Below, piece after piece: positions 14,187-44,253 of a stretch of DNA of 64,000 bases. The translations under genes were made by a program, and so were the position numbers. The number at the start of each line of letters is the position of its first letter. Position 1 is the first letter of the stretch. The notes under the pieces are model-generated. The model was not told the origin of the DNA. It worked only from the letters and a program-made list of their open reading frames with translations, and ran no database searches. The DNA is taken from the NCBI RefSeq assembly GCF_988242995.1, contig NZ_OZ547043.1; one strand, 5' to 3'.

Positions 14187-14189
14187 CAT

Positions 14190-14412
14190 CTTTATGTTCT
14201 TCGGCGGCGAGCGCAGTGCACTGTTGTATGGGCTTATCGGCACCTGCCGTCTGAACGACATTGATCCGGAAGCGTATCTGCGCCATATCCTGAGCGTACT
14301 GCCGGAATAACCTTCCAACCGTATTGATGAACTCCTGCCATGGAACGTAGTTCTCACCAATAAATAAGCATCAATATGATTCTCCATTAACGCTTACCTT
14401 TTCTCAGGCTAT
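14190..14412 (+). mobile_element. truncated IS66-family 3' end (tnpC C-terminal remnant plus terminal repeat), diverged
   Basis: Translates to FFGGERSALLYGLIGTCRLNDIDPEAYLRHILSVLPE and PSNRIDELLPWNVVLTNK, matching the C-terminus of TnpC at 23289..24902; ends with degenerate IS66 terminal repeat ...cgcttac. Confidence 0.6.
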
Positions 14413-14505
14413 TTTTGCTTTTTTTTGCTTTTCCCCGCCACTTTATGGTGATTATCACATCAATATACATCGATAGATATTAACGTAACTGCAGTGAGGT
14501 GAAGC

Positions 14506-15720
14506 ATGAAATTTGAACGCCATCATGAAATATTGAAACGACTCAGTAAATTCGGTTCTGTAAAAGTATCCGATCTGTCCAATAGCCTCAATGTAACGAA
14601 AGAAACTATTCGTTCAGATCTTAATGAACTTGCCAGGCTTGGCTATCTGACTCGATGTCATGGCGGTGCTTTTATCGTCCTAGACTCGCTTGATACTATT
14701 GCGAAAAATGAAATCGCTTATGCGCTTGAAAATTATGATACAGCCCAGGGAATAAAAAAAGGCCACTCAACTATGAAAAGTCAAGTATGCGTTATTGGTT
14801 CGTTTAATGTTGATATCATCAGTTATTTGCCGAGGCTTCCCACTATCGGAGAATCGCTTCTGGCAAGTAATTTTATATTTTCACCGGGGGGAAAAGACTG
14901 TAACCAGGCGCTGGCAGCAAGCTTTGCCGATACTGATGTTTATTTCATAACAAAAGTAGGTACAGATCACTTTAGTGATTATGCGATCAACTTTATGAAT
15001 TCGTCTAAGATTTATAAAAGTATAATTTATCAAACGAAAGAAACGCAAACCGAAACTGCCACGATCCTTGTTAATGAAGGTACTGGCGATAATGTTATTG
15101 CGATCTATCCCGGTGCCAACATGACAATGTCGCCCGATGAAATAACTATTCAGAAAGAAGCGATTATTAATTCTGATGTCATACTTCTGCAGCTCGAAAC
15201 AAATTATACCGCTCTGCAACAAGCGATCACATTGGCGCAAAAAAACAGTATCCCGGTCATTATTAACCCGGCACCCTATAATGATATCGTCAACGAACTT
15301 ATTCAGGATGTTGATTATATCACCCCCAATGAAACAGAAGCTGGTTTACTGTCCGGCATAGACGTACACGATCTTGAATCAGCTAAACGAGCTGCAGAAG
15401 CTATCCACAATAAAGGGGTAAAAAACACGGTTATCACGCTCGGTAGCAAGGGCTCGCTCGCATTTGATGGCAAAAAATTCATTCATTCGCCAGCGTTTCC
15501 AGCGGTCGTTAAAAATACGGCAGGAGCCGGGGATGCGTTTAACGGCTCTCTGGCATCAGGACTTGCGAAAGGAAAATCACTGGAATCAGCACTGTGTTAT
15601 GCCAGCGCCTTTGCATCCCTAGCGGTGGAGACAAGCAATGCTTCCGACATGCCTGAACATGAATCTGTGATACATCGAATTCAGAGTATACATTATCAGC
15701 AAACTATTTTTACGCATTAA
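14506..15720 (+). CDS. DeoR-type HTH domain fused to PfkB/ribokinase-family carbohydrate kinase
   Basis: 404 aa; N-terminal DeoR-like HTH (VKVSDLSNSLNVTKETIRSDLNELARLGYLTRCHGGA) then PfkB body with GAGDAF signature near C-terminus. Confidence 0.7.
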   Translation: MKFERHHEILKRLSKFGSVKVSDLSNSLNVTKETIRSDLNELARLGYLTRCHGGAFIVLDSLDTIAKNEIAYALENYDTAQGIKKGHSTMKSQVCVIGSFNVDIISYLPRLPTIGESLLASNFIFSPGGKDCNQALAASFADTDVYFITKVGTDHFSDYAINFMNSSKIYKSIIYQTKETQTETATILVNEGTGDNVIAIYPGANMTMSPDEITIQKEAIINSDVILLQLETNYTALQQAITLAQKNSIPVIINPAPYNDIVNELIQDVDYITPNETEAGLLSGIDVHDLESAKRAAEAIHNKGVKNTVITLGSKGSLAFDGKKFIHSPAFPAVVKNTAGAGDAFNGSLASGLAKGKSLESALCYASAFASLAVETSNASDMPEHESVIHRIQSIHYQQTIFTH

Positions 15721-15733
15721 GAAGGGACAGAGA

Positions 15734-16492
15734 ATGAATAACACCAAAAAATCACTAAAAGTGCTCTTTATTGGGGAATCCTGGCATATTCATATGATTC
15801 ATTCAAAAGGATATGACAGTTTTACCTCAAGTAAATATGAAGAAGGTGCGACCTGGTTACTCCAGTGTCTGAAAAATAGTCAGGTAGATGTCACCTATAT
15901 GCCAGCACATACGGTACAAATTGCCTTCCCTGAAGATGTGGCACAGTTAGAACAATATGATGCCATCGTTATTAGTGATATTGGTAGTAATACTTTCCTG
16001 CTACAAAATGATACTTTTTATCAGCTTCGCATAAAACCAAACGCTCTCGAACTGATTAAAGAATATGTGAATAACGGTGGTGGGTTATTGATGATTGGCG
16101 GCTATCTCTCATTCATGGGAATTGAAGCAAAAGCCAATTATAAAAATACAGTTCTGGCTGATGTGCTCCCGGTTACGATGTTAGATGGTGACGATCGTGT
16201 CGAAAAACCAGAGGGTGTTATTGCACAGCCATCACAACCTGAACATCCAGTTATTAAAGGGTTCTCTGAATATCCTTTTTTCCTAGGTTATAACCGGGCG
16301 ATCGCTAAAGAAAATGCTGAGGTGGTATTAACAATAAACAACGCTCCATTACTGGTCTTTGGTAACTATCACAACGGGAAAATAGCCTGCTTTATGAGTG
16401 ACTGTTCACCGCACTGGGGTACACAGCAGTTTATGTCCTGGCCGTTCTATACCGCGTTGTGGGTAAATATACTGACTCATATTGCAAGATAA
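15734..16492 (+). CDS. hypothetical protein, possibly class-I glutamine amidotransferase-like fold
   Basis: 252 aa ORF immediately downstream of the kinase gene (14-nt gap); fold assignment is pattern-based only. Confidence 0.5.
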   Translation: MNNTKKSLKVLFIGESWHIHMIHSKGYDSFTSSKYEEGATWLLQCLKNSQVDVTYMPAHTVQIAFPEDVAQLEQYDAIVISDIGSNTFLLQNDTFYQLRIKPNALELIKEYVNNGGGLLMIGGYLSFMGIEAKANYKNTVLADVLPVTMLDGDDRVEKPEGVIAQPSQPEHPVIKGFSEYPFFLGYNRAIAKENAEVVLTINNAPLLVFGNYHNGKIACFMSDCSPHWGTQQFMSWPFYTALWVNILTHIAR

Positions 16493-16548
16493 TAATAATA
16501 ATGGGGTAACTCCAGTTACTCCATTTACTATAATAGAAGGATTGATGT

Positions 16549-17514
16549 ATGAAAAAGAATAAGTACTCAACTCCCTTATGGATGCTTGCCACGATTCTTG
16601 CGGGTATGCTCTCCCCTATGCAATCAGCGGTGAATGGTCAATTAGGTCACTGGTTACAGGATGGTAATGCATGCGCAGTTATCTCCTTTGCCAGTGGTTT
16701 AGTCGTGATGTTTTTTATTATTATGGCGCGAAAAGAAACCCGGCAACAATTTGCGGCAATTCCTTCTCTGATTAAAAACCGAAAAGTTCCTCTCTGGAAC
16801 TGGTTTGCCGGTCTCTGTGGAGCGATGGTGGTATTTTCTGAAGGCGCATCAGCCAGCGCACTCGGGGTCGCAACGTTTCAAACCGCACTGATCTCCGCGC
16901 TATTGCTGTCTGGTTTACTTTGCGATCGCTTTGGTATCGGTGTCGACGAGAAAAAATACTTTACCCCTTATCGCATCATCGGTGCATTATTTGCGGTTAT
17001 TGCTACGATTTTTGTTGTGTCACCTCAGTGGCATTCTACCTCTTTCATCTTACTTGCCATTCTTCCGTTCTTAGCTGGTTTGCTTGCAGGATGGCAGCCC
17101 GCTGGAAATGCAAAAGTAGCTGAAGCTACGGGATCCATGCTGGTTTCAATCACCTAGAATTTCATCGTTGGATTTTGTGTTTTAGGCACAGCGCTAGCTA
17201 TTCGTGTCGCATTAGGGCACGTCACTGTTCAATTACCAGATGTCTGGTGGATGTATCTTGGCGGCCCGCTTGGACTAATGTCTATCGGTTTAATGGCCAT
17301 TTTGGTCAGAGGTCTGGGGTTACTGATGCTGGGGGTTGCTTCAACGGCGGGCCAGTTACTGGGATCAGTATTGATTGACGTATTAATTCCATCGCTGGGC
17401 AATAGCGTTTATCTGGTCACGATCATCGGAACACTGTTTGCACTGGTCGGTGCAATTGTTACCACTATTCCGGAATACAGAACCTCGAAAACAATGAAGA
17501 AAATGGAGGTATAA
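16549..17514 (+). pseudogene. DMT/DUF606-type membrane transporter with single in-frame amber stop (TAG at 17155..17157)
   Basis: ORFs 16549..17157 and 17251..17514 are in the same frame; only one TAG interrupts a continuous about 320-codon hydrophobic reading frame. Confidence 0.5.
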
Positions 17515-17516
17515 TC

Positions 17517-18551
17517 ATGAAAGATTATCTACAAACTGTGACGGGCCCCGTCGCCCGTGAAGATATGGGGCTAACACTTCCTCATGAACATCTGTTCAAC
17601 GATCTTTCCTCTGTTGTGGATGCTCCTTGCTATCCTTTTTCACAACGGCTTGTTGATAAAAAAGTCACGGCAGAAATCCAGTGGGCATTAAAACACGATC
17701 CTTATTGCTGCGCTGATAATATGGACCGCAAACCTATTGAAGATGTGATCTTCGAAATTAATAACTTTATCTCGCTCGGTGGTCGCACCATTGTTGATGC
17801 CACAGGGTCTGAGTCTATCGGACGAGATGCGCAGGCATTACGAGAAGTCGCATTAAAAACAGGTCTGAATATTGTTGCTTCCTCCGGTCCCTACCTGGAA
17901 AAATTTGAAAGCCAGAGAATTCATAAAACGGTTGATGAACTGGCGACAACGATCGATAAAGAATTGAATCAAGGGATTGGCGATACGGATATTCGTGCCG
18001 GAATGATCGGTGAAATAGGTGTTTCACCGACATTTACCGAAGCCGAGCATAACAGCTTGCGGGCTGCCTCGCTGGCACAGATTAACAATCCTCATGTGGC
18101 GATGAATATTCACATGCCGGGCTGGCTTCGTCGCGGTGATGAAGTACTCGACATTGTGTTAGGTGAAATGGGCGTCTCGCCAAATAAAGTCTCTCTCGCA
18201 CACTCGGATCCGTCAGGAAAAGACGTGGCGTATCAGCGGAAAATGCTTGATAAAGGTGTCTGGCTGGAATTCGACATGATTGGCCTAGACATTACCTTCC
18301 CGAAAGAGGGAATAGCGCCAGGGGTGCAGGAGACTGCCGATGCCGTCGCTCATCTCATTGAGTTGGGTTACGCCGATCAGCTTGTTCTCAGCCACGATGT
18401 CTTCCTTAAACAAATGTGGGCTAAAAATGGCGGTAATGGCTGGGGATTTGTTCCAGATGTTTTTCTGGCCTATCTGGCGGAGCGCGGCGTCGATAAAACG
18501 ATCCTCAAAAAACTCTGTATCGATAATCCCGGACGATTATTGACCGCATAA
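17517..18551 (+). CDS. phosphotriesterase-related protein (PHP/amidohydrolase family)
   Basis: 344 aa; N-terminal GLTLPHEHL metal-binding motif typical of phosphotriesterase homology proteins. Confidence 0.8.
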   Translation: MKDYLQTVTGPVAREDMGLTLPHEHLFNDLSSVVDAPCYPFSQRLVDKKVTAEIQWALKHDPYCCADNMDRKPIEDVIFEINNFISLGGRTIVDATGSESIGRDAQALREVALKTGLNIVASSGPYLEKFESQRIHKTVDELATTIDKELNQGIGDTDIRAGMIGEIGVSPTFTEAEHNSLRAASLAQINNPHVAMNIHMPGWLRRGDEVLDIVLGEMGVSPNKVSLAHSDPSGKDVAYQRKMLDKGVWLEFDMIGLDITFPKEGIAPGVQETADAVAHLIELGYADQLVLSHDVFLKQMWAKNGGNGWGFVPDVFLAYLAERGVDKTILKKLCIDNPGRLLTA

Positions 18552-18595
18552 AACCATTATCCCCCGGCACATTGCGCCGGGGGATGTCAATTAAT

Positions 18596-18957
18596 ACCCC
18601 GCCGTTAAATCATCCACCAAGCGCGAGTCGGATGCGCCGTACAACTCACCATCCGACCCAACCATAATGCTTTGCGTGCTGCCCATCGCCTCATTCAGCG
18701 CCACTTTCTGACCTTTTGCATCCAGCAGCTTGAGCGTATCCGGACTAAACCCTTTTCAACACGCAGCTCGTCCGGCAACCACTGATAGTGGAAACGAGGC
18801 GCATTGGTCGCTTCGGCAACATTCATTCCACAATTGATGCTGTTCACCACCATTTGCAGCACGGTAGTGATGATCCAGCTACCGGTAACAAAGTGAGTAC
18901 ATAAAGGCCATACTGTCACGAACAGTGCAAAAGTGGCTCTTCCGCAACCTGGGTGAA
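18596..18957 (-). pseudogene. 3' remnant of a gamma-glutamyltranspeptidase gene
   Basis: Minus-strand translation gives ...NAPRFHYQWLPDELRVEKG and, after a frameshift, GFSPDTLKLLDAKGQKVALNEAMGSTQSIMVGSDGELYGASDSR, a GGT C-terminus. Confidence 0.6.
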
Positions 18958-20600
18958 GATTTTCATGCCAGTGGACTCATTACCCTCCGCCTAAGTAGTT
19001 CAAGTCCGGCTCGACCATACATCTGGCGTATCAGCACCTTCAGGCGATTTACATGACCTTCGACAACACCAGTACTCCAGCGACTGCTGATTGCCTCACA
19101 TATAGCCGCAGCATCAGCTTCCATCCCCGCAGCTACGCACCGAAGTTCTGCTGAGCCGCTTTCGTGGACCCGAGTGAACCAGCTGCTTAGCTGTGATTTA
19201 TTTTAGGTTTTCAGAATACGGTAGAACTCGAGTACCAGTTGCTGCGCTATTTTCAACTCCGGTTCTTTTTCACACATCAGACTAATAAATCGGAAAGCAT
19301 AATTTTCTTCACCCCTGATTATTCTCCAGGGCATCAACCAGCGGCTTACCCGGGACACTGAAGGAAGTCTTGCGGCAGTAGTAACCGGTGGGATCCAGCC
19401 TTTACGCCATTTGGCAACAGCATCCCTGACGATGGTTTCACTGCCTGTAACCCCCCTGGCCACCATTTCCCGCCATATCCGGCCGGAGTTATAATTACCA
19501 CATTCTCGTTGCTCTTTTAACCACTCCCTCCATGGGTCCAGAAGCCCTCGCTTTGGAGGCCTAGTTGACATTTCAGGGAATGTTCCTGAACCCACCCAGC
19601 GACTGACTGTCACTCGCGACAGGCCTGTAATACGGGATATTTCCCTGAAACTACATCCCTTGTTATGCAGGGCCATAACCTCTGTCCAACGCTGATGCCG
19701 TTTTTTGCGGATGTGCTGTTTAAGGCGTTCCAGACGACGGAGCGATGCTACAGGCACAGATATTTCTGGCTCAGGTGATTTCTTCAGTGATAACTCTCTG
19801 ACAACAAGACGTATCAGAGGCATATGTCTGTACATCATTCGTTCAGGCTCATCACCAATATTTTTTAGCAGGTGCCATCGATCGGCCACCTGTCTGGCCT
19901 GAGGTGCACCTTCACGTGCTGCTGTCGCATAGACTCCACTGCGATCACGCGAGACAACCTGTATTTCCGGATATTTTCTGAACCAGGTCGCCAGCGTACG
20001 CTGATCACGGCCGGGAAGCAGGACGAGGGGACGGTGAGTATCAAGATTGACTATTAACATACCGCAGCAGTGGCCCCGATGCCACGCCCACTCATCAATA
20101 CCGACATGAGGCGCGCCTGACTGTTTCGTCTCCGGGGTATTGATAACCCTGCGAAGAAGAGTATCAGCACTGCAACGGAGACCCGCTGCCGTTGCAGCCC
20201 GTTTTCCAGCCTCACCTCCAGCTATTAATCCCAGTTGACGTTGTAAATTTTGTAACGCCTGTGAAGACTGCTGGTGTGAACCGGCGAAGGGAGCAAGCGA
20301 CTCGGCAAAAATTTTACGTGAACAAGCCGGGTTACGGCAGTACCAGTGGCGGACGGAAAATACAAGCCATAGCGTCTGCCCTGAGCAGGGTAGATGCTGT
20401 ATCCGGCGCCGACGACAACTATGAACAGAGTCGCTACGCTTAAAGCATTCAGGACATTGTGCTGTTTTGCGTTTTCCGTGGAGATGGAGGGTTATACCGT
20501 CAGAGCTAATAATTTGTCGACTGCATCGCCATCCGCAAGGTAACTGTAGAAGTGTCTTAAGAGAGTGCATTGCGTTGCCCATAACTTAAAACAGCTTAGA
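18958..20600 (-). mobile_element. ISL3-family element with disrupted transposase (boundaries approximate)
   Basis: Transposase reading frame broken near 19200; no terminal repeats identified by eye. Confidence 0.4.
19203..20582 (-). CDS. ISL3-family-like transposase (N-terminal and central part)
   Basis: 459-aa ORF with Cys-rich zinc-finger region, GIDEWAWHRGH...LIVNLDTHRPLVLL DDE-like core and VADRWHLLKN; the conserved ISL3 C-terminal motif (STGVVEGHVNRLKVLIRQMYGRAGLELLRRRV) lies in another frame at 18960..19200. Confidence 0.55.
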   Translation of the reverse strand: MGNAMHSLKTLLQLPCGWRCSRQIISSDGITLHLHGKRKTAQCPECFKRSDSVHSCRRRRIQHLPCSGQTLWLVFSVRHWYCRNPACSRKIFAESLAPFAGSHQQSSQALQNLQRQLGLIAGGEAGKRAATAAGLRCSADTLLRRVINTPETKQSGAPHVGIDEWAWHRGHCCGMLIVNLDTHRPLVLLPGRDQRTLATWFRKYPEIQVVSRDRSGVYATAAREGAPQARQVADRWHLLKNIGDEPERMMYRHMPLIRLVVRELSLKKSPEPEISVPVASLRRLERLKQHIRKKRHQRWTEVMALHNKGCSFREISRITGLSRVTVSRWVGSGTFPEMSTRPPKRGLLDPWREWLKEQRECGNYNSGRIWREMVARGVTGSETIVRDAVAKWRKGWIPPVTTAARLPSVSRVSRWLMPWRIIRGEENYAFRFISLMCEKEPELKIAQQLVLEFYRILKT

Positions 20601-23258: not shown

Positions 23259-23288
23259 GTAAGCGTCAACGGAGCACCGTATTGACGC

Positions 23289-24902
23289 TTATTTATTGGT
23301 GAGTACTACGTTCCATGGCAGGAGTTCGCCAACTCGGTTGGAAGGCCATTCCGGCAGTACGCTCAGAATATGGCGCAGATACGCTTCCGGATCGATACCG
23401 TTCAGACGGCAGGTGCCGATCAGCCCGTACAGCAGTGCACCACGCTCGCCGCCGTGATCGCTACCGAAGAACACGTAATTTTTCTTTCCGAGACAGACTG
23501 CACGAAGCGCTCTTTCCGCTGTGTTATTGTCCGCCTCCGCCAGACCGTCATCACAGAAGTTGCACAACGCAACCCAGTGCTTCCTGATATACCGGAACGC
23601 ATCTCTCAGACGGCATTTTTTCGATAACGTGTGTTCTTTCTCCTGCATCAGCTTATACAGGGAAGTCAGTAGCGGTTTACTCTGCATTTGCCTGACCGCC
23701 AGGCGTTCAGACACCGGCAACCCGCGTATTTCGTGCTCAATGGCGTACAGTTCACCGATTAGTTTCAGTGCTTCTTCCGCCGTCGCGCTTTTGGTACTGA
23801 TATATACATCGTGGATTTTGCGCCGTGCATGAGCCCAGCATCCTGCTTCCGTCAACGCGCCGCCTTCACGTTCGGCACTGAACAGCCGATCGTAACCTGC
23901 GAACGCATCTGCCTGCAGGATACCCCGGAAGGGACGAAGGTGTTGCTCCGGATGTTTACCCTGATGGTCCGGTGAGTAGGCGAACCAGACCGCCGGAGGT
24001 TCTGGCGAACCGGCATTTCGGTCATCCCGGACATACGTCCAGATATATCCTGTTTTCGCCTTCTTCCTGCCCGGTGCCAGTACTTTTACTGGTGTGTCAT
24101 CAGTGTGAACCTTGCGGGTGTTCATCACATAACTGTACAGGGCATCATTCAGCGGAGTCATTAACTGGCAGCACGCATCAACCCAGTTGGAGAGTAAGGC
24201 ACGGCTCAGTTCGACACCCTGGCGGGCAAAGATTTCACTCTGACGATACAGTGGCAGATGTTCGCAGTATTTTCCCGTTAACACGCGGGCAAGTAACTCC
24301 GGGCCCGCGATACCACGCTCTATCGGACGGGATGGTGCCGGTGCTTCAACGATGCAGTCACATTTTGTACAGGCTTTTTTTACCCGTTCTGTGCGGATCA
24401 CTTTCAGGGCGCTGCTCACCAGTTCCAGTTGTTCTGCACTGACTTCCCCCAGATAATCCAGCTCACCGCCACACTCCGGGCAACAGCTTTCTTCAGGCTC
24501 CAGGCGGTTTATTTCGCGGGGCAGAAGCTCCGGTAACGGACGACGATGGCGTGACTGTCGCAACTGGCGGGGAACCTGCGGGTCATCCTCTCGCCCACTG
24601 TAACGATCGCTGTCCTGTTCGCGTTGCTTCAGCAGGGCCTCAGCCTGTTCAACTTCACGACGCAGTTTTTCAGAACGGGTACCGAACAGCATCCGGCGCA
24701 GTTTTTCTATCTGAGCCCGCAGATGTTCTATTTCCCGTTCATCTTCTTCGATCTTTTCTTCGGCACGTGCCAGCACAGAACGCAGGAAGGCCTCCGTCTC
24801 TTCAACCAGACTCAGTTGTTGGTCTTTCTGACGGAGGGCTTCAGCCTGCTCAGAGAGCAACCTTTCCAGCTCTGCGATGCGAATGAGGTATTTCTGACTC
24901 AT
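23289..24902 (-). CDS. IS66-family transposase TnpC
   Basis: 537 aa; N-terminal coiled coil, CPECGG zinc motif, DDE region; C-terminus LYGLIGTCRLNGIDPEAYLRHILSVLPEWPSNRVGELLPWNVVLTNK. Confidence 0.85.
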   Translation of the reverse strand: MSQKYLIRIAELERLLSEQAEALRQKDQQLSLVEETEAFLRSVLARAEEKIEEDEREIEHLRAQIEKLRRMLFGTRSEKLRREVEQAEALLKQREQDSDRYSGREDDPQVPRQLRQSRHRRPLPELLPREINRLEPEESCCPECGGELDYLGEVSAEQLELVSSALKVIRTERVKKACTKCDCIVEAPAPSRPIERGIAGPELLARVLTGKYCEHLPLYRQSEIFARQGVELSRALLSNWVDACCQLMTPLNDALYSYVMNTRKVHTDDTPVKVLAPGRKKAKTGYIWTYVRDDRNAGSPEPPAVWFAYSPDHQGKHPEQHLRPFRGILQADAFAGYDRLFSAEREGGALTEAGCWAHARRKIHDVYISTKSATAEEALKLIGELYAIEHEIRGLPVSERLAVRQMQSKPLLTSLYKLMQEKEHTLSKKCRLRDAFRYIRKHWVALCNFCDDGLAEADNNTAERALRAVCLGKKNYVFFGSDHGGERGALLYGLIGTCRLNGIDPEAYLRHILSVLPEWPSNRVGELLPWNVVLTNK

Positions 24903-24932
24903 GACCGTTTTTATAATGCGGTCAGGAGTTTT

Positions 24933-25283
24933 TTACAACATTGTCAGTGAGTTAAGGCGGGATGTTTTTGGCTGACGCCAGTCCAGCTTATCGAGGAGCA
25001 TTACCAGTTGCGAACGGGTAATGGATACCTTGCCGTCACGTACCGCAGGCCAGATAAACTGGCCTTCCTCCAGGCGTTTGGTGAACAGGCACAGACCATC
25101 AGCATCAGCCCAAAGAATTTTAACGGTGTCACCCCGTCGGCCACGGAAGATAAACAGGTGGCCGGAGAAGGGATTATCATTCAGCACATGTTGTACCTGT
25201 TCTCCCAGTCCGTTGAAGGATTTACGCATATCGGTAACGCCGGCAACGAGCCAGATACGGGTACCTGATGGGAGTGAAATCAT
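24933..25283 (-). CDS. IS66 Orf2 (TnpB)
   Basis: 116 aa MISLPSGTRIWLVAGVTDMRKSFNGLGEQV..., typical IS66 orf2. Confidence 0.85.
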   Translation of the reverse strand: MISLPSGTRIWLVAGVTDMRKSFNGLGEQVQHVLNDNPFSGHLFIFRGRRGDTVKILWADADGLCLFTKRLEEGQFIWPAVRDGKVSITRSQLVMLLDKLDWRQPKTSRLNSLTML

Positions 25284-25705
25284 CTTCCCCTCCCGCTCAG
25301 TTCGCGGATCAACACCGTGAGCAGCTCTGGCGATGGATTTTCCAGCGTCATGTTACCGTGACGGAACTCCACCTTGCAGGAACTGGCACTGACTCTGGTC
25401 TGAGTGGAAGTGGATAAAGACGGCGCAATGGCCGCCACAGGTTTTTTCTGCTCATCCGGCGTTATTTCTACAGGTAATAATTCAACGCCAGTGTCAGAAG
25501 AGGTCGTTACCGGAAGACGCCGCGAAACACGCCCTTCGTTCTGCCAGAGCCTGAGCCATTTGAAAATAACATTATCATTGACGCCATTTTCACGTGCAAT
25601 CTGTGCAACACAAGCTCCAGGTTGTGATGCCAGTTCCACCATACGAAGTTTGAATTCATTCGAATAGTTTTTACGAGGTTCTTTTCGCCAGTCCTGTAAT
25701 TCCAT
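25280..25705 (-). CDS. IS66 Orf1 (TnpA, HTH)
   Basis: 141 aa; overlaps orf2 start by 4 nt. Confidence 0.8.
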   Translation of the reverse strand: MELQDWRKEPRKNYSNEFKLRMVELASQPGACVAQIARENGVNDNVIFKWLRLWQNEGRVSRRLPVTTSSDTGVELLPVEITPDEQKKPVAAIAPSLSTSTQTRVSASSCKVEFRHGNMTLENPSPELLTVLIRELSGRGR

Positions 25706-25790
25706 ACTTAGATGTCCGTCTATATCAGATGGGCGTCTAAGTTACCAATTTTCGTCTGATGGCTACATACGGCGGTCAGTTTACGCTTAC

Positions 25791-27463: not shown

Positions 27464-28372
27464 TGTCTGAGAACCACAGGGCTGGCAGCAGAAAACCAGC
27501 CCTGTGGTAAAATACAGTAATAGCGGCGTACATCAGGCACGCCGCTCACTCGTCCACAGATCATATACGTCATTATACTGCGCGATAACGGAGGGCTTCA
27601 GCACCCGGTCATTTCTGAGCGGGTATGAATACCATTGATGATGCGAAGCAGCCACGGGCAGAAACGTTCTTCACAACCAGGTGCCTCCATCTTCACTGCA
27701 GTCTGAATGTGCCGGCTTGTTATCCACCAGAAATGGTATGCTCCGGTACATGCATACCCCGGAGACTATAAACGCACTGAATCATAGCCTCCCACCTCAG
27801 CAGGAGGCAGTCAGCTTTCAGGCGGAAAAACGTTGCAGTTAAAGATCGTGAGAATCGCTGTTTCGTTGCATAGCAACCCGAACAGTTGTAGTGAAACATT
27901 TTACCTGCATCAGCACATGGTCAGGCGCCGTCTGTATGGCGTGGAATACTGATGTTTCGGCTGATGGCAAGCCTCATTCTCTGTGGAAACAGGGGCGCGC
28001 ATTAGCTTCTCAACCAGAGAGTGTCACAAAGACAAATATTGCTGAAAATCGCATTCATCGTTCAGGCGTGAATGCCCGGAGACAAAAGCCGCTGTCCACA
28101 CAGTCCCCCTCTGACCTGAACAAAAAGCATACACACAACAGGCTCACCTGACCCCGAAAAACCATAACTTCAGCAATACCAGTGACACCAGCACGTTACC
28201 TCAGTGCCACATCTTCAGACCGCGATCAATCTGAAATGTGACTATCGGGGCAATATCCCTGCTTTGTGGTACACGATAACCAGAAAACATCCCCTGAACC
28301 GCCAGCCAGAAAGACTGGCCACAAAAGGGGTAAGCTGAAATCGTTTATGGATTACATCGACATATGCCTGGC

Positions 28373-28380
28373 AGAGAATG
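28373..28380. repeat. target-site duplication (AGAGAATG) of IS66 copy 2, left
   Basis: Identical octamer at 30817..30824. Confidence 0.8.
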
Positions 28381-28421
28381 GTAAGCGTGCAGTGAGAACC
28401 GTATTGACGAAGTGAAGCTGG

Positions 28422-29990
28422 TCAGGCAGGCAGAGTAACCCGCCACGGGAGCAGAGCACCCACCCGGTTCACAGGCCAGTCGGCGATGACATCAAGTACA
28501 TGATGCAGATAGCGTTCCGGATCCACGCCGTTTAATTTGCACGTCCCGATAAGACTGTACAGTGACGCACCGCGCTCACCACCATGATCCGAGCCGAAGA
28601 ACAGCCAGTTTTTTCTCCCCAGACTGACCAGTCGTAGGGCGTTTTCGGCAATGTTATTATCCACCTCCACCCAGCCATCTTCTGCATAGCGGGTCAGCGC
28701 CGGCCACTGGTTCAGCGCATACCCGAACGCCTTCGCCAGTTCTGAGTGCCTTGAGAGGGTTTTCTGTTTCTCCCGCAGCCACCCCTCCAGTGACGCCAGC
28801 AGCGGCAGCACTTTTTGGTGCCGGACTGCCTGCCGTTCCTCTGCTCTTTTACCTCTGAGCTCCGACTCGATGGCATACAGCTCGCCGATCCGTTTCAGCG
28901 CCTCCTCCGTCAGGGCTGACGGGGTACGGACGTGAACATCGTGGATTTTTCGGCGGGCATGGGCCCAGCACGTGGCTTCCTTTATATGGCCGTCGCGGTA
29001 GAGCTCGTTGAACCCGGCGTAGGCATCAGCCTGCAGTACGCCACTGAAGCCTGCAAGATGGGTCTGAGGGTGGATACCTTTTCTGTCCGGGCTGTAAGCG
29101 AACCACACTGCGGGGGCCAGCGCTGATCCGGCGTTGCGGTCGTCTCGAACGTACGTCCATAAGCGCCCGGTCTTCGTCTTCTTATTGCCCGGCAACAGCA
29201 CCGGGACAGGCATATCGTCAGCATGGAGTTTGCCGTCGGTCAGGACATAGTGCTGAAGGGCTTCATCCAGCGGTGCCAGCAGACGACAACACGCATCCAC
29301 CCAGCCCGACAGTACAGAACGACTCAACACTACACCCTGGCGGGCATAGATCTCCGACTGGCGATACAGCGGTATGTGCTCTGCATACTTTGAGGTCAGC
29401 ACTCGGGCCAGCAGCCCCGGTCCGGCGATCCCCCGTTCGATGGGGCGCGAAGGAGCCGGGGCCTGAACGATGCGATCGCACCGACGGCAGGCATGCTTTT
29501 CACGGACTGTCCGGATAACCCGGAAGGCGCTGCGCATCAGCTCCAGCTGTTCGGCGGCATCCTCACCCAGGTAACTCAGCGAACCACCGCACTCCGGGCA
29601 ACACGGCTCAGTCGGCAGCAGCCGCTTCTCATCCCGTGGGAGTGACTCAGGGAACGGTTTGCGGGTGCGGGTCTGACGCAGCGGGCGCTGCACTGCCGGG
29701 TCATCCACCCGGCCGGTCAGCGTATCGCTTTCCTGCTGCAGCAGGTTCAGGTCAGCTTCCATTTGCGCGATACGGCGGGATACCTTTTCGGAACGACTGC
29801 CGAAGTTCATCCGGCGCAGCTTATCCAGTTGCGCCTGCAGATGGTCTATTTCGCGTTCCCGGTTGCTCAGCTTTTCCTGCAGGGCGTGGATCAACGCTTC
29901 CTGTTCGGCCAGGCGCTGTTTCAGCAGAAGGATGTCGTCAGAAGAGGTGTCGTTCATAAGCCTGTATTTTCCAGGCTTATTCTGCGACAA
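28422..29990 (-). CDS. IS66-family transposase TnpC
   Basis: 522 aa; same architecture as 23289..24902 but clearly diverged in sequence. Confidence 0.85.
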   Translation of the reverse strand: MSQNKPGKYRLMNDTSSDDILLLKQRLAEQEALIHALQEKLSNREREIDHLQAQLDKLRRMNFGSRSEKVSRRIAQMEADLNLLQQESDTLTGRVDDPAVQRPLRQTRTRKPFPESLPRDEKRLLPTEPCCPECGGSLSYLGEDAAEQLELMRSAFRVIRTVREKHACRRCDRIVQAPAPSRPIERGIAGPGLLARVLTSKYAEHIPLYRQSEIYARQGVVLSRSVLSGWVDACCRLLAPLDEALQHYVLTDGKLHADDMPVPVLLPGNKKTKTGRLWTYVRDDRNAGSALAPAVWFAYSPDRKGIHPQTHLAGFSGVLQADAYAGFNELYRDGHIKEATCWAHARRKIHDVHVRTPSALTEEALKRIGELYAIESELRGKRAEERQAVRHQKVLPLLASLEGWLREKQKTLSRHSELAKAFGYALNQWPALTRYAEDGWVEVDNNIAENALRLVSLGRKNWLFFGSDHGGERGASLYSLIGTCKLNGVDPERYLHHVLDVIADWPVNRVGALLPWRVTLPA

Positions 29991-30005
29991 CCAGGATAAA
30001 GAGCG

Positions 30006-30353
30006 CTACAACATGGTCAGGGATGTCAGTAACCGCTTTGGCTGTCGCCAGTCGATACCTTCCATCAGCATCGCCAGTTGCGCCGGCGTCAGGAACACTT
30101 TGCCATCGCGGGCTGAGGGCCAGGCGAAGCGACCACGTTCTAGTCGCTTTGTCAGCAGGCACAGACCATCGCCGGTGGACCAGAGCAGTTTTACCTGACT
30201 GCCGCTGCGTCCCCGGAAGATGAAGACGTGGCCGGACATCGGGTCATCTTTCAGCGCGGTCTGCACCTTTGCGGCGAGGCCATTGAAGCCGTTGCGCATA
30301 TCGGTGATACCGGCAACCAGCCAGATTTTTGTGCCTGCGGGAAGATTTATCAT
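30006..30353 (-). CDS. IS66 Orf2 (TnpB)
   Basis: 115 aa MINLPAGTKIWLVAGITDMRNGFNGLAAKV... Confidence 0.85.
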   Translation of the reverse strand: MINLPAGTKIWLVAGITDMRNGFNGLAAKVQTALKDDPMSGHVFIFRGRSGSQVKLLWSTGDGLCLLTKRLERGRFAWPSARDGKVFLTPAQLAMLMEGIDWRQPKRLLTSLTML

Positions 30354-30733
30354 ACAGGCCCCCGCATCAGTTCGCGCAGGACAGTGCTCATGAGTTCAGC
30401 AGAGGGATGAGTCAGTGTTATTTCTCCTCCCCGACATTTTATGTGGCAGGTAGCGGGAGGAGAGCAGGATGGTAGTTCGAAGGTTGGGAGAGAAGAGCCC
30501 GCCTGAAGCTGCACGGGTATCAGGGCAGGAAGCGACGATGAGTTTTTTCGGGGCCGACAGACCCGCCCTTCACGCTGCCAGAGCCTTATCCATTTAAAGA
30601 GCAGGTTATCATTGACGTCATGTTTCCGGGCCAGTGCGGCAATACTGCCTTCTTCTTCAAGAGCCAGCCTGACCAGTTCCATTTTGAATTCAGGGGAATA
30701 GTGTTTCCGGGGAAGTCTTTCTTTAGCGCGCAT
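30350..30733 (-). CDS. IS66 Orf1 (TnpA, HTH)
   Basis: 127 aa; overlaps orf2 by 4 nt. Confidence 0.8.
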   Translation of the reverse strand: MRAKERLPRKHYSPEFKMELVRLALEEEGSIAALARKHDVNDNLLFKWIRLWQREGRVCRPRKNSSSLPALIPVQLQAGSSLPTFELPSCSPPATCHIKCRGGEITLTHPSAELMSTVLRELMRGPV

Positions 30734-30816
30734 GAGGTGTCCACCTGCAAAATAAGTGGGTGCTTAAGTTACAGGATCCTGGATTCGGGACCAGACGGTA
30801 CTCAGACGACGCTTAC

Positions 30817-39825: not shown

Positions 39826-40236
39826 ATGAAAACTTTTATCAAAACTTTACTCGTTGCTGTAACTATTCTGTTCTCTGTCTTCGCTACTGCGAAACAAGTA
39901 AAACTGCCAAATAACATCAAATACGTTAATACTACAGAAGCGTTTTCCTGTACCGAAATTGACGGTATGAATTGCCAGACAAAGAATCAGTTCAACTATA
40001 AAGATAACAGCTATGTTTTCGTGCTTGAACGTGGTGGTGCCTGGTGCTACGACTACACTGTCTCGGTAGTTAACCTGAAAACCGGGAAAGCACAAATGAT
40101 TGAATACGGGGACAATCAACTGTGCTCAGGTAGCAACAAACCGTTCTTCGAAATCAAAAATGGCGTACCGACGGTAGGAGTCATCGACACATCCGGAAAA
40201 CCTGTCGTTGTAGCCCAGGACAAACTTAAAATCTAA
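39826..40236 (+). CDS. secreted hypothetical protein (signal peptide, four Cys)
   Basis: 136 aa; strong RBS TAAGGAG; N-terminal MKTFIKTLLVAVTILFSVFATA signal peptide. Confidence 0.6.
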   Translation: MKTFIKTLLVAVTILFSVFATAKQVKLPNNIKYVNTTEAFSCTEIDGMNCQTKNQFNYKDNSYVFVLERGGAWCYDYTVSVVNLKTGKAQMIEYGDNQLCSGSNKPFFEIKNGVPTVGVIDTSGKPVVVAQDKLKI

Positions 40237-40379
40237 GGAGTAAACCATGCGTTTCTCTGCACATTATTAATATCAAAGGTAAATACAGCCCCAGCCATTG
40301 TTACCGGAAAGCCGCTTAATGCGTGGCTCGCCAGTGAAAGGCCTCTCAGACAATAAACCTTATTCATTTCACCCGTCAG

Positions 40380-40411
40380 GCCGCGTCTTCTCCGGGAGAC
40401 GCGGCTTTTTT
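40380..40411 (+). terminator. rho-independent terminator
   Basis: gccgcgtct ... agacgcggc hairpin followed by TTTTTT. Confidence 0.7.
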
Positions 40412-40456
40412 CATTTATTGCACCAGTAAATCTTAACCACCGATAAGGAGCAAAGT

Positions 40457-41278
40457 ATGCGATTAGCCAGTCGTTTTGGTTATGCTGCAAACCAGATACG
40501 CCGTGACCGTCCGCTGACACATGAAGAACTGATACGCCATGTACCCAGTATTTTTGGGGAAGACCGGCACACCTCCCGCAGTGAACGGTATGCGTACATT
40601 CCCACCATTACCGTCCTGGAAAATCTGCAGCGGGAAGGCTTTCAGCCGTTCTTCGCCTGCCAGACCCGTGTGCGCGACCCGGGCCGCCGGGGATACACAA
40701 AACACATGCTGCGTCTGCGGCGGGCCGGAGAGATAAACGGAGAACATGTCCCTGAAATTATTCTGCTCAACTCTCATGACGGTACCTCCAGCTACCAGAT
40801 GCTGCCGGGTTACTTCAGGTTCGTCTGCCAGAACGGGTGCGTCTGTGGCCAGTCTCTGGGGGAAGTGCGTGTTCCACACCGGGGAAATGTAGTGGAGAAA
40901 GTTATCGAAGGGGCTTACGAGGTGGTGGGCGTGTTTGACCGGATAGAGGAGAAGCGTGATGCCATGCAGTCGCTGGTCCTGCCGCCACCGGCACGCCAGG
41001 CGCTGGCACAGGCGGCACTGACTTACCGTTATGGTGACGAACATCAGCCCGTCACCACCGCCGACATTCTGACGCCGCGACGCCGGGAGGATTACGGTAA
41101 GGACCTGTGGAGCGCATATCAGACCATCCAGGAGAATATGCTGAAAGGCGGGATTTCCGGTCGCAGTGCAAAAGGAAAACGTATCCATACCCGGGCCATT
41201 CACAGCATTGATACCGACATTAAGCTCAATCGCGCATTGTGGGTGATGGCAGAAACGATGCTGGAGAGCCTGCGCTGA
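40457..41278 (+). CDS. DUF932-family prophage protein (YfjQ/YafZ-like)
   Basis: 273 aa; RBS AAGGAG; family typical of CP4-type islands downstream of the GTPase/cargo region (recognition from memory). Confidence 0.65.
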   Translation: MRLASRFGYAANQIRRDRPLTHEELIRHVPSIFGEDRHTSRSERYAYIPTITVLENLQREGFQPFFACQTRVRDPGRRGYTKHMLRLRRAGEINGEHVPEIILLNSHDGTSSYQMLPGYFRFVCQNGCVCGQSLGEVRVPHRGNVVEKVIEGAYEVVGVFDRIEEKRDAMQSLVLPPPARQALAQAALTYRYGDEHQPVTTADILTPRRREDYGKDLWSAYQTIQENMLKGGISGRSAKGKRIHTRAIHSIDTDIKLNRALWVMAETMLESLR

Positions 41279-41359
41279 TGCCGTTTCCCTGGGTGAGGGA
41301 ATCATTCAGCTTTCGTTCCTGAAAAACACACATTTATTTGTTATTTAAGGAGTTATCTC

Positions 41360-41839
41360 ATGAAAACCGTTTCTCAGAATACCCCCACAATTTATTCAGC
41401 TACAACACCAGAGAATAATCCGCCTCAGTTGGTTGCCAGCCTCGTCCCTGATGAACAGCGCATCAGCTTCTGGCCGCAGCATTTTGGCCTCATTCCACAG
41501 TGGGTGACCCTGGAGCCCCGTGTCTTCGGCTGGATGGACCGTCTGTGCGAAGACTACTGCGGTGGTATCTGGAATCTGTACACCCTGAACAACGGCGGGG
41601 CATTTATGGCACCCGAACCGGATGACGATGATGACGAAACATGGGTACTGTTCAATGCCATGAACGGTAACCGCGCAGAAATGAGCCCGGAAGCCGCCGG
41701 TATTGCCGCCTGTCTGATGACGTACAGTCATCATGCCTGTCGTACGGAGAATTATGCCATGACGGTCCATTATTACCGGTTGCGGGATTACGCCCTGCAG
41801 CATCCGGAATGCAGCGCCATTATGCGCATCATCGACTGA
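41360..41839 (+). CDS. antirestriction protein (KlcA/ArdB-like, YfjX/YeeR-position)
   Basis: 159 aa with acidic stretch PEPDDDDDETW; RBS AAGGAG. Confidence 0.7.
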   Translation: MKTVSQNTPTIYSATTPENNPPQLVASLVPDEQRISFWPQHFGLIPQWVTLEPRVFGWMDRLCEDYCGGIWNLYTLNNGGAFMAPEPDDDDDETWVLFNAMNGNRAEMSPEAAGIAACLMTYSHHACRTENYAMTVHYYRLRDYALQHPECSAIMRIID

Positions 41840-41854
41840 ATGGAGAGAAGCACA

Positions 41855-42331
41855 ATGCAACAACTTTCCTTTCTGCCCGGAGAGATGACGCCCGGCGAGC
41901 GCAGCCTCATTCAGCGGGCCCTGAAAACCCTGGACCGCCATCTTCATGAACCCGGCGTGGCCTTCACCTCCACCCGTGCAGCACGGGAATGGCTGATTCT
42001 GAACATGGCGGGACTGGAGCGTGAAGAATTCCGGGTGCTGTATCTGAACAACCAGAATCAGCTGATTGCCGGTGAAACCCTCTTCACCGGCACCATCAAC
42101 CGCACGGAAGTCCATCCCCGGGAAGTGATTAAACGCGCCCTGTACCACAATGCCGCTGCCGTGGTACTGGCACACAATCACCCGTCCGGTGAAGTCACAC
42201 CCAGTAAGGCAGACCGGCTTATCACCGAACGTCTGGTACAGGCACTGGGCCTGGTGGATATCCGGGTGCCGGACCATCTGATAGTCGGTGGCAACCAGGT
42301 TTTCTCCTTTGCCGAACATGGTCTGCTTTAA
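41855..42331 (+). CDS. yeeS: RadC-like JAB-domain protein
   Basis: Start at MQQLSFL with GGAGAG RBS; JAMM motif HNHPSGEVTPSKAD. Confidence 0.8.
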   Translation: MQQLSFLPGEMTPGERSLIQRALKTLDRHLHEPGVAFTSTRAAREWLILNMAGLEREEFRVLYLNNQNQLIAGETLFTGTINRTEVHPREVIKRALYHNAAAVVLAHNHPSGEVTPSKADRLITERLVQALGLVDIRVPDHLIVGGNQVFSFAEHGLL

Positions 42332-42393
42332 CCCTTCACAACCACATCACACCTGTTTTCACTTTTATCTTCTGTCTTCAGAGGTATCCCATT

Positions 42394-42615
42394 ATGAAAA
42401 TTATCACCCGTGGTGAAGCCATGCGTATTCACCAACAACATCCGACATCCCGTCTTTTTCCGTTCTGTACCGGTAAATACCGCTGGCACGGCAGTGCTGA
42501 AGCGTATACCGGTCGTGAAGTGCAGGATATTCCCGGTGTGCTGGCCGTGTTTGCTGAACGCCGTAAGGACAGTTTTGGTCCGTATGTCCGGCTGATGAGC
42601 GTCACCCTGAACTGA
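42394..42615 (+). CDS. yeeT: DUF987 protein YeeT
   Basis: 73 aa MKIITRGEAMRIHQQHPTSRLFPFCTGKYRWHG... Confidence 0.75.
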   Translation: MKIITRGEAMRIHQQHPTSRLFPFCTGKYRWHGSAEAYTGREVQDIPGVLAVFAERRKDSFGPYVRLMSVTLN

Positions 42616-42688
42616 GTGGGAATTCTGATGAGCAGAATTATCGCCACTACCGGACCATTCTTAGCCGATTTTCTGTAAGGATTTTATC

Positions 42689-43057
42689 GTGTCAGACACA
42701 CTCCCCGGGACAACACTTCCCGACGACAATCACGACCGCCCCTGGTGGGGGCTGCCCTGCACCGTGACGCCCTGTTTCGGGGCACGTCTGGTGCAGGAGG
42801 GTAACCGGTTGCATTACCTTGCCGACCGCGCCGGTATCAGAGGCCTGTTCAGCGATGCAGATGCGTACCACCTGGACCAGGCCTTTCCGCTGCTGATGAA
42901 ACAACTGGAACTCATGCTCACCAGCGGTGAACTGAATCCCCGCCATCAGCATACCGTCACGCTGTATGCAAAAGGGCTGACCTGCAAAGCCGATACCCTC
43001 AGCAGTTGTGGTTACGTTTATCTGGCTGTTTATCCGACGCCCGAAATGAAAAATTAA
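42689..43057 (+). CDS. cbeA: type IV toxin-antitoxin antitoxin CbeA (YeeU)
   Basis: 122 aa, intact. Confidence 0.8.
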   Translation: MSDTLPGTTLPDDNHDRPWWGLPCTVTPCFGARLVQEGNRLHYLADRAGIRGLFSDADAYHLDQAFPLLMKQLELMLTSGELNPRHQHTVTLYAKGLTCKADTLSSCGYVYLAVYPTPEMKN

Positions 43058-43145
43058 CTCTCCAGAATAGCCTTCTGCTACGGCCTGGTGTTTTCACCAC
43101 GCCACTTTTCCATTTTTATATCTGCATATCAGGAAAATCTTCAGT

Positions 43146-43519
43146 ATGAAAACATTACCTGTATTACCCGGGCAGGCGGCCAGTTCTCGCCCGTCTCCTG
43201 TTGAAATCTGGCAGATACTGCTGTCCCGACTGCTGGACCAGCACTATGGCCTCACACTGAATGACACACCTTTTGCCGATGAACGTGTGATTGAGCAGCA
43301 TATTGAGGCAGGCATTTCACTGTGTGATGCGGTGAACTTTCTCGTGGAAAAATACGCGCTGATGCTACCGACCAGCCGGGATTCAGCGCCTGTACCCGCT
43401 CTCAGTTAATAAACAGCATCGATATCCTCCGGGCTCGCAGGGCGACCGGCCTGATGACCCGCGACAATTACAGAACGGTAAATAACATTACCCTGGGTAA
43501 GTATCCGGAGGCGAAATGA
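43146..43519 (+). pseudogene. cbtA: CbtA (YeeV) toxin gene with frameshift
   Basis: N-terminal 73 aa typical of CbtA, then frame shifts ([19 protein letters not shown] stop); the expected C-terminus NSIDILRARRATGLMTRDNYRTVNNITLGKYPEAK is encoded in another frame ending at 43519. Confidence 0.7.
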
Positions 43520-43710
43520 TGACACTGGAAGCCGACAGCGTTAACGTACAGGCGCTGGATATGGGGCACATTGTCGTTGACATTGATGGTGTTAATATCA
43601 CTGAACTGATTAATAAGGCCGCTGAAAACGGTTATTCACTCCGCGTGGTGGATGACCGTGACTCTACCGAAACACCGGCAACTTATGCCAGCCCTCACCA
43701 GTTGCTGTAA
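43516..43710 (+). CDS. yeeW: YeeW-like small protein
   Basis: 64 aa; start overlaps cbtA stop (ATGA). Confidence 0.6.
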   Translation: MMTLEADSVNVQALDMGHIVVDIDGVNITELINKAAENGYSLRVVDDRDSTETPATYASPHQLL

Positions 43711-43865
43711 GACAATGCAGTGATGCAGGGTATAGTGCCATTAACCACAGAAACAGCACTGTTGTCCTGTATTAAGCAGGCAAGAGAAGATGTCCTTACC
43801 CTGCGCCATCTGCAGCTTCTGCACCAGAACCGGTGAATCTCACTCAACAGGCTTCATTTCCCCTG

Positions 43866-43895
43866 ACGCCAGCCTGAATACAGCTGGCGTTTTCA
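43866..43895 (+). terminator. rho-independent terminator
   Basis: acgccagc ctgaataca gctggcgt hairpin followed by tttcattt. Confidence 0.55.
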
Positions 43896-44094
43896 TTTAT
43901 AAACAGAAAGGAAAACCGATAATAATGGAATGGACGCCCCGACCATGAAGCAACGGTAGGATATTACTGATAAACCTTCCAGTGGAGGTGCGTTATGGCC
44001 GTTTTAACGATTAGCATTGACCTGACAAAAAATGAATTCCAAATCCACGGTCTGGGTAGGAACAGAAAAATCTAAGCTCAGAAAACGGATTAAA

Positions 44095-44253
44095 GTAAGC
44101 GTCAACGGAGCACCGTATTGACGCTTATTTATTGGTGAGAACTACGTTCCATGGCAGGAGTTCGTCAACACGGTTGGAGGGCCATTCCGGCAGTATGCTC
44201 AGAATATGGCGCAGATACGCTTCCGGATCGATACCGTTCAGACGGCAGGTGCC
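44095..44253 (-). mobile_element. truncated IS66-family 3' end fragment (near-identical to end of IS66 copy 1)
   Basis: 159 bp matching 23259..23417 with a few mismatches; ends abruptly at 44253. Confidence 0.7.

Follow-up and report, generated by a model that had tools for sequence, protein, structure and literature searches.

The IS66 family of insertion sequences, which includes ISEc43, ISEc23 and IS682, is characterized by the genes tnpA, tnpB and tnpC, terminal repeats of the GTAAGCG type, and an 8-bp target duplication. A fragment of such an element is annotated in Escherichia coli K-12 as the pseudogene yoeD (b4642), a neighbor of yoeF (b4538) where the cryptic prophage CP4-44 ends on its right side, in the order yeeW ... 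yoeD, yoeF, tmaR. Inverted copies of an insertion sequence are also known to support inversions by homologous recombination. Members of the IS1111/IS110 group, for their part, are known to home on other mobile elements, as in the case of IS4321/IS5075, found in the terminal repeats of the Tn21 family, and ISEc21, which occupies conserved codons of IS3-family transposases, both described in PMC11187229 and its reference 1. The stretch of 64,000 nucleotides analyzed here (the window) carries two inverted IS66 pieces in a CP4-44-type island, and can be compared with each of these systems.

A preliminary description of the window had recognized two tnpC 3' pieces, on opposite strands and facing inward, and their presence is confirmed by BLAST, Pfam, a repeat search and the tip sequences. 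In comparison with the intact ISEc43 found inside the window (23259-25790), which served as the reference for the relics, the right fragment (44093-44253) is 96.9% identical over 161 nt (E=4e-73), and the left fragment (14202-14397) is 88.8% identical over 196 nt (E=2.5e-69). The repeat search of the window paired inverted arms at 14239-14400 and 44092-44253, with 90% complementarity over 162 nt and 29,691 nt between them, and the C-terminal element of TnpC (PF13817) is recognized in both relic translations, at 37.9 bits on the left and 58.8 bits on the right (cut-off 30). The tips, CGCTTAC at 14397 and GTAAGCG at 44095, are in register with those of the intact ISEc43, and the terminal repeats point inward across an interior of approximately 29.7 kb. 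Chance would be far too weak an explanation for both fragments, which can be regarded as relics of IS66-family members, rather than functional members. In common with the family, they have a right terminal repeat and the C-terminal domain of TnpC, but tnpA, tnpB and the greater part of tnpC are gone from both, along with the left end. The left relic is further damaged by frameshifts, a deletion of 12 bp and a premature stop, and neither can therefore transpose. They have no demonstrable function, and their present-day activity is passive only, as a 162-nt inverted repeat and as target sequences for IS110-family elements.

The right relic (44095-44253, minus strand; tip at 44095) consists of the last 42 codons of tnpC followed by the right terminal repeat, and its near identity to "copy 1" of the preliminary description, which is the intact ISEc43, holds at the 96.9% given above. 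It is the K-12 pseudogene yoeD, from which it does not differ in sequence, junctions or neighbors, and the window matches K-12 at 99.2% over 5.7 kb across this junction, which is present in 3323 of the 5426 complete E. coli genomes (61%). At 44253, the truncated end adjoins the probable tail of a fossil element, apparently of the IS110 family and here termed ISx, rather than the remnant of pduV/yoeF. The 5' stub of ISx lies on the other side of the relic, at 43938-44094 (plus strand), with a start codon at 43996, position 43938 being where the alignment with the genome GN4554 starts, rather than a defined limit of the element. In the genomes GN4554 and 7_14_47A, which represent a class of 533, this stub runs on into a further 1311 bp of ISx, a degraded IS110-like gene that stands in place of the 159-bp IS66 piece, between identical flanks. 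This comparison with genomes without the right fragment, proposed in the preliminary description, recovered the ancestral, IS66-free state of the right site. The stitched ISx translation from 7_14_47A matches PF02371 (Transposase_20) at 51.8 bits (cut-off 21.3) and PF01548 at 25.3 bits, below the cut-off of 29, and the element is annotated by PGAP as an IS110 family pseudogene. Given that the IS66-free genomes carry these 1311 bp between identical flanks, the IS66 element probably entered ISx, and a deletion with both endpoints internal would subsequently have removed most of both.

The preliminary description had also proposed that the 44253 junction replaces the 5' part of the yoeF-like gene, which does not hold. 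At this point, the IS66 sequence joins a segment of 68 bp (44254-44321, plus strand) that is neither IS66 nor pduV, and that forms one stretch with the non-coding sequence 3' of ISx in the IS66-free genomes; it may be ISx sequence or a spacer. Homology to PduV begins only at residue 57-58 of the yoeF reading frame, at approximately nt 44322, where the K-12 annotation also sets the right end of CP4-44. What follows (44322-44507, plus strand) is a pduV 3' remnant of the last 60 codons, the sole PduV-like part of the K-12 "yoeF" frame, with 56 of the 60 residues identical to residues 87-146 of the intact PduV of strain SWHEFF_69, in which pduV is the last gene of an intact pdu operon and adjoins tmaR. 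The PduV/EutP profile PF10662 covers only residues 57-112 of the 118-aa frame, which correspond to profile positions 86-142 of 143, and does not extend over the whole frame, the N-terminal half of which is composed of antisense IS66 and ISx-flank sequence. The truncation of pduV is common to the IS66-free genomes, and is therefore independent of the IS66 piece.

The junction at 44253 has no microhomology between its IS66 side (GGTGCC|GATCAG) and its ISx side (TCTATA|TGCTTT). An exact-pattern scan of one genome per bacterial species, covering exact matches in representative genomes only, returned 0 matches each for the tip and truncation junctions of the right relic, the right junction being documented within the E. 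coli collection. The preliminary description would have taken intact IS66 copies at the same sites, with no rearrangement, as evidence against its reading; at the right site, none was found in the 5426 genomes, where a query composed of the flank, the relic and the continuing ISEc43 sequence gave no one-piece match, and recovered only independent IS66 insertions elsewhere in ISx or in the truncated pduV. Two of these, full ISEc23/ISEc43 copies in the same orientation, lie 113 bp and 509 bp deeper in ISx, in strains C288 and 17-07187, and are the basis for an alternative in which the 44094|44095 tip junction arose by an IS66 tip-adjacent deletion that started from a deeper insertion, in which case the transposase shaped this junction. 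Both copies, however, are flanked by perfect 8-bp target duplications (ATAATGTC and CAACGAAC, respectively), and are hence primary insertions, and the 17-07187 copy is identical to the relic at only 150 of 159 positions. An independent insertion is simpler, and the tip-adjacent deletion appears improbable.

The left relic has a different anatomy. The preliminary description had placed it at 14190-14412, truncated at 14190, and although the plus-strand tnpC 3' end is real, the IS66 tip lies at 14397, the remaining positions (14398-14412) being flank, and position 14190 is the right junction of an insertion rather than a truncation point. The inserted element is ISEc45, an IS110-family member of 1444 bp (12746-14189, minus strand; named by PGAP in strain E2), which has the Pfam domains DEDD_Tnp_IS110 and Transposase_20, and splits the relic, with the core dinucleotide CT at each of its two junctions; strain 07-4299 has the empty site, AAAAACT|TTATG. 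Part B of the relic (14190-14397, plus strand) comprises the 3' end of tnpC, interrupted by a premature stop at 14308-14310, together with the right terminal repeat; the 12-bp internal deletion reported previously is present (TAGCGATCACGG, four codons). The relic resumes upstream of ISEc45 in part A (12520-12745, plus strand), which consists of degraded tnpC codons with frameshifts and stops, and has an approximate 5' limit (12499-12531). Positions 12531-12743 of this part match ISEc43 at 71% in BLAST (E=4e-22), and its translation aligns to TnpC, frameshifts included, with weak matches to PF03050 and PF13817 when it is joined to part B. In total, the left relic keeps approximately the last 143 tnpC codons and one end, and its identity to the intact E. 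coli IS66 members examined is no more than about 84-89% (about 84% to its best intact relatives, such as IS682/ISEc23). It is contiguous, without ISEc45, in 1777 genomes, and bears ISEc45 in 170 more, for a total of 1947 of the 5426 (~36%).

On its left side, the relic abuts the internal end of an IS2-like (IS3-family) 5' remnant (12283-12498, plus strand; tip at 12283), which is 83% identical to the end of K-12 IS2F and 89% identical to the K-12 sequence upstream of yeeP. An additional 740-bp insert beside the left relic in strain S88 proved to be another IS fragment, and does not account for the IS2-like/IS66 junction. CP4-44 sequence common to K-12 (11264-12498) stands to the left of the relic, which is thus located inside the island, and does not form its edge, as had been supposed.

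The relics also differ from one another. They are 89.9% identical over 159 nt, in comparison with the 96.9% between the right relic and ISEc43, although gene conversion with active IS66 copies could have distorted this comparison; at only about 90% identity, they derive from different elements, and this divergence of some 10%, together with their unlike distributions (61% vs. 36% of the genomes, with only the right relic in K-12), indicates that they did not arise in one event. No target duplication links them, the flanks of the left tip (CTTTTCTC) and the right tip (GGATTAAA; reverse complement TTTAATCC) being unrelated, and the left end of each has been deleted, and its target duplication with it.

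These observations bear on the possibility that one or a few events driven by the IS66 transposase (intramolecular transposition resulting in a deletion or inversion) produced both inward ends, the island boundaries and the 5' loss of yoeF/pduV. The inverted geometry with inward tips is real, and the IS66 family is plainly active at the locus, given that the window alone contains two intact copies and that, among strains, ISx has received three independent insertions. The intact ISEc43 (23259-25790, minus strand) is a simple insertion with an 8-bp target duplication (GTCTATAA), absent from strains 07-4299 and RMDEC465, and a second intact element, approximately 65% identical to it (28381-30816, minus strand), is also bounded by an 8-bp duplication (AGAGAATG); the duplications are clean, and the two elements are unrelated recent insertions. 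Against this reading, the truncation junctions of the relics are internal to IS66, the right one lying 159 bp away from the tip and the left one about 430 bp of IS66 sequence away from its own, not counting ISEc45, and as neither endpoint is at an IS66 terminus, they do not point to the IS66 transposase as the agent. The right junction, moreover, is with ISx sequence rather than pduV, whose truncation is shared by IS66-free genomes, the relics are 10% divergent and unlike in distribution, the left one is internal to the island, and the interior is collinear with that of K-12. This alternative is already largely refuted, and must be considered very unlikely.

The comparison with K-12, proposed as a check in the preliminary description, found yeeP, and yeeS through dacD, to be collinear with the window, so that no inversion has occurred here. 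The left relic and 21 kb of the island interior are missing from K-12, where a 21.4-kb deletion that corresponds to window positions 12499-33855, and shows GTA microhomology, removed them. The earlier suggestion of past IS66-mediated deletion or inversion thus stands only in part: deletions did cut both IS66 copies short, and the inverted repeat can frame an inversion, but no endpoint lies at an IS66 terminus, the two copies do not reflect one event, and the window is not inverted. The same comparison bears on whether the intervening segment arrived in an IS66 composite transposon, whose arms have since decayed into the two relics, as might be suggested by two inverted IS66-family pieces on either side of approximately 30 kb of accessory DNA. 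The termini that were kept face inward, however, with the IS bodies outside, the reverse of what a unit delimited by its outer ends would show, and the arms, at 89.9% identity, are not copies of one element. The interior contains ordinary CP4-44 backbone that is common to K-12, which has no left arm, and to 7_14_47A, which carries the same backbone without either relic, and no IS66-bounded 30-kb unit was found at any other chromosomal or plasmid site. Of the alternatives considered here, this is the least credible.

The locus is very probably best explained, as a whole, by two dead relics, each derived independently from a different IS66-family element, in a heavily IS-scarred island of the CP4-44 type, which stands where the lost cbi-pdu region was, between cobU and tmaR. 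On the right, an ISEc43/ISEc23-like element would have entered the pre-existing ISx, between the yeeW/DUF957 end of the island and the already truncated pduV remnant. A later deletion of approximately 3.7 kb, with one endpoint inside tnpC, the other inside ISx, and no microhomology, would then have taken 1311 bp of ISx, leaving the last 159 bp of the IS66 element. On the left, a more diverged IS66-family element would have inserted inside the island, by the rikA sugar-kinase module, and would have lost its 5' part at the junction with the IS2-like remnant, ISEc45 probably splitting the relic later, in this lineage. The order and age of these events are inferred from the presence/absence counts and the divergence of the sequences, and the deletions would be the product of illegitimate recombination rather than of a transposase.

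An inverted interior was found by a chimeric junction query in one of the 5426 genomes, that of RMDEC465, which is not the genome of this window. The inversion runs between two 100% identical, inverted 1518-bp copies of ISSso6, one in each IS66 tip, and thus through ISSso6 rather than IS66 itself. This inversion of the 29.7-kb interior resembles those produced by homologous recombination between inverted IS copies, but it is seen in one genome only, and the window is not inverted; it may also reflect misassembly over a repeat of 1.5 kb.

In many replicons, ISSso6, which has subterminal inverted repeats, sits 4-5 bp inside IS66 tips, and ISEc45 occupies, at other loci as well as here, a stretch of tnpC that is conserved in IS66 elements. 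Like IS4321/IS5075 and ISEc21, both lie in mobile-element sequence, but with IS66 as the apparent target, which is not mentioned in two IS110/IS1111 papers searched for that term; nothing specific was found in the literature on yoeD, ISSso6, or the targeting of IS66 by IS110-family elements. Tentatively, and with somewhat less than even confidence, the dead IS66 ends may not be inert, the tip being a homing site for ISSso6 and the tnpC stretch for ISEc45, both RNA-guided members of the IS110 family, such that inverted relics with twin ISSso6 copies might make about 30 kb invertible, as in RMDEC465.

The two inverted IS66 leftovers are old, independently acquired scars, and not the footprints of one IS66-driven rearrangement, a finding that is ordinary and of a known kind. 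On its own, it carries little weight, given that the IS relics of CP4-44 are already annotated, as yoeD in K-12 and as PGAP pseudogenes elsewhere. It does, however, correct the anatomy of the region, with the K-12 "yoeF" reading frame being a chimera in which 60 codons of pduV are preceded by antisense IS66 and IS110-flank sequence, and the right edge of the island being the junction of ISx with the truncated pduV, rather than an IS66 junction. The locus is also a record of nested IS-into-IS insertions that can be placed in order, and may be of interest to the field of bridge/seek-RNA recombinases, given that two IS110-family elements appear to target IS66, and one pair of these frames a 30-kb inversion.

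Two remnants of the 3' end of an IS66-family tnpC gene lie in inverted orientation near the sides of the island, as claimed in the preliminary description, and both align to the intact ISEc43 of the window (23259-25790, with the 8-bp duplication GTCTATAA), albeit with corrected limits. The right relic (44093-44253) is 96.9% identical to this element (BLAST, E=4e-73), and the left relic (14202-14397) is 88.8% identical (E=2.5e-69), with both encoding the IS66 C-terminal domain PF13817 at Pfam scores above the cut-off. The relics form inverted arms of 162 nt that are 90% complementary and have 29.7 kb between them. Both bear the GTAAGCG family tip, directed inward as described, and the 12-bp deletion reported in the left copy is confirmed by the sequence. 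The left fragment had been placed at 14190-14412, but the IS66 tip is at 14397, and 14190 is the edge of an insertion of ISEc45 (IS110 family; 12746-14189, CT core on both sides). Given this edge, and the uninterrupted site in strain 07-4299, the left relic extends to ~12520-12745, where it is 71% identical to ISEc43, contains frameshifts and stops, and is far more decayed.

The left and right relics do not stem from one event, since they are 89.9% identical to each other over their common 159 nt (against the higher identity of the right relic to ISEc43), differ in their distribution (61% of the genomes for the right relic, 36% for the left), and have unrelated tip flanks, with no related target duplication being found beside the two tips when these flanks were compared. 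The alignment with K-12, in which the island interior is collinear, the inward tips, and the presence of the same island backbone in 7_14_47A with neither relic all argue for the same conclusion. A composite transposon is made very unlikely by the inward tips, which are the wrong geometry. The proposal of IS66-mediated deletion or inversion thus stands in part, in that both copies were cut short by deletions and their arrangement is one that can frame an inversion. The events were, however, separate, they are not demonstrably the work of the IS66 transposase, and the interior is collinear with K-12. Nor did these events set the island boundaries, as had been suggested, given that the left relic is at least 1.2 kb inside the island, and the end of CP4-44 is at ~44322.

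The right relic is the K-12 pseudogene yoeD, with the window and K-12 being 99.2% identical over 5.7 kb and the junctions identical. A 521-bp probe, comprising this relic and both flanks, was recovered in 3323 of 5426 complete genomes (counted at a coverage of at least 80%), and the genomes without the relic fall into two classes. In some E. coli, such as SWHEFF_69, an intact pdu operon persists at this locus, its last gene, a 147-codon pduV, lying directly beside tmaR. In the other class (533 genomes, including GN4554 and 7_14_47A), the flanks correspond to window 43938-44094 and 44254 onward, and what links them is 1311 bp from a decayed transposase gene of the IS110 family, denominated ISx here, in place of the 159-bp IS66 piece of the window. 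The ISx gene matches Transposase_20 at 51.8 bits, while its DEDD domain scores below the Pfam cut-off. The fact that ISx fills identical flanks in relic-free genomes points to the insertion of an IS66 element into the fossil ISx, with a later deletion, internal at either end, that would have taken 1311 bp of ISx along with the remaining IS66. No microhomology was found when the sequences of the deletion junction were compared, and a full IS66 at the exact site of the relic is present in none of the 5426 genomes searched. Full copies of ISEc23 and ISEc43, with their own 8-bp duplications, occur deeper in ISx, at 113 bp (C288) and 509 bp (17-07187), and another full IS66-family copy lies within the pduV remnant of NR1441. 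Across ISx (window 43938-44321; loci L010, L012, and L005 of other strains), IS66-family elements occupy three positions in different strains, always in the same orientation, with intact 8-bp duplications in two.

The homology with PduV starts at residue 57-58 of the yoeF ORF (~nt 44322), exactly where the end of CP4-44 is placed in K-12, and the 68-bp stretch separating this point from 44253 would, by sequence comparison, belong to the ISx side. As pduV is also truncated in IS66-free genomes, its truncation is independent of IS66, and the junction at 44253 did not, therefore, replace the 5' part of yoeF. The yoeF ORF annotated in K-12 (window 44151-44507) has 118 codons, the first 57 being antisense IS66 and ISx flank, and only the last 60 PduV, and it is thus a chimera.

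The window is E. coli DNA with the gene order shiA/amn, asnW-asnU-asnV, ldtA, cobTSU, the island, and tmaR-yeeA-sbmC-dacD. Its left part matches strain E2 and its right part S88, while it is identical to neither; the orthologous surrounding DNA is ~99% identical between strains. A cobalamin-biosynthesis gene stub (11161-11304) adjoins cobU and a pduV stub (44322-44507) adjoins tmaR, and these are the two edges of a lost cbi-pdu region. In K-12, the island interval corresponds to the cryptic prophage CP4-44, whose annotated range is 2066020-2078748 (window 11264-44325). The yoeG region of K-12 aligns with window 11400-12284 at 99.8% identity, whereas window 12499-33855 is deleted in K-12, which is why the left relic is missing there. 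The IS2-like 5' stub that adjoins this relic on the left (12283-12498) is joined in K-12 to mid-yeeP with a GTA microhomology (position 12660 of the K-12 locus), and the sequences indicate that CP4-44 derives from a window-like island through a 21.4-kb deletion.

On its right, the left relic adjoins a low-GC module of the rikA kinase, an amidotransferase, a DMT transporter, and a phosphotriesterase. This module (14398-18551; ~42% GC versus ~50% around it) starts exactly at the IS66 tip; rikA encodes a PfkB kinase whose N-terminal part is regulator-like, and the amidotransferase is a glutamine amidotransferase. The DMT-family gene (16549-17514) is broken into two ORFs in the window (16549-17157 and 17251-17514), is intact in S88, and has an IS3 insertion in E2. 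The uninterrupted relic with both neighbours is found in 1777 of the 5426 genomes, and a further 170 carry it split by ISEc45. Among intact elements, the nearest relatives of the relic are IS682 and ISEc23, at only ~84% identity.

The whole 29.7-kb interior, from rikA through the ISx stub, is inverted in RMDEC465, and in this strain only (1/5426 genomes). Two ISSso6 copies of 1518 bp, 100% identical and inverted (6769-8286 and 38525-40074 of the RMDEC465 locus, L008), lie 4-5 bp within both IS66 tips, which are exchanged. The simplest reading is that two site-specific ISSso6 insertions were followed by homologous recombination between the copies, although the inversion may instead reflect misassembly at the 1.5-kb repeat. 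The subterminal inverted repeats of ISSso6 are ATGACTTTCCGTG, and a 31-bp tandem duplication of target flank and IS66 tip, AAATCTAAGCTCAGAAAACGGATTAAAGTAA twice, is found at one ISSso6 junction (L008 38495-38555). In RMDEC465, IS100 (L008 21014-23018) also stands in place of window 28326-30815, a second IS66-family element plus 55 bp, the same spot being occupied by two different IS elements.

Further ISSso6 copies, on plasmids and chromosomes, adjoin the 3' end of IS66 tnpC, with the CTTAC tip on the opposite side. The ISEc45 site in the window is the conserved tnpC stretch AAAAACT/TTATG, and eight of the 10 full ISEc45 copies sampled from other loci and plasmids are inside IS66-family tnpC genes, which suggests that IS66 tnpC is a natural target of this element. 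The homing of IS110/IS1111 elements on mobile elements is established, with IS4321/IS5075 targeting the ends of Tn21 and ISEc21 the DDE codons of the IS3 family (PMC11187229), whereas ISEc45 and ISSso6 are found here in IS66, a target for which no mention was found in the literature open to searching. The locus is otherwise an ordinary, largely annotated IS graveyard, and its only mildly new thread is the apparent homing of IS110 into IS66, together with the single inversion that it frames.
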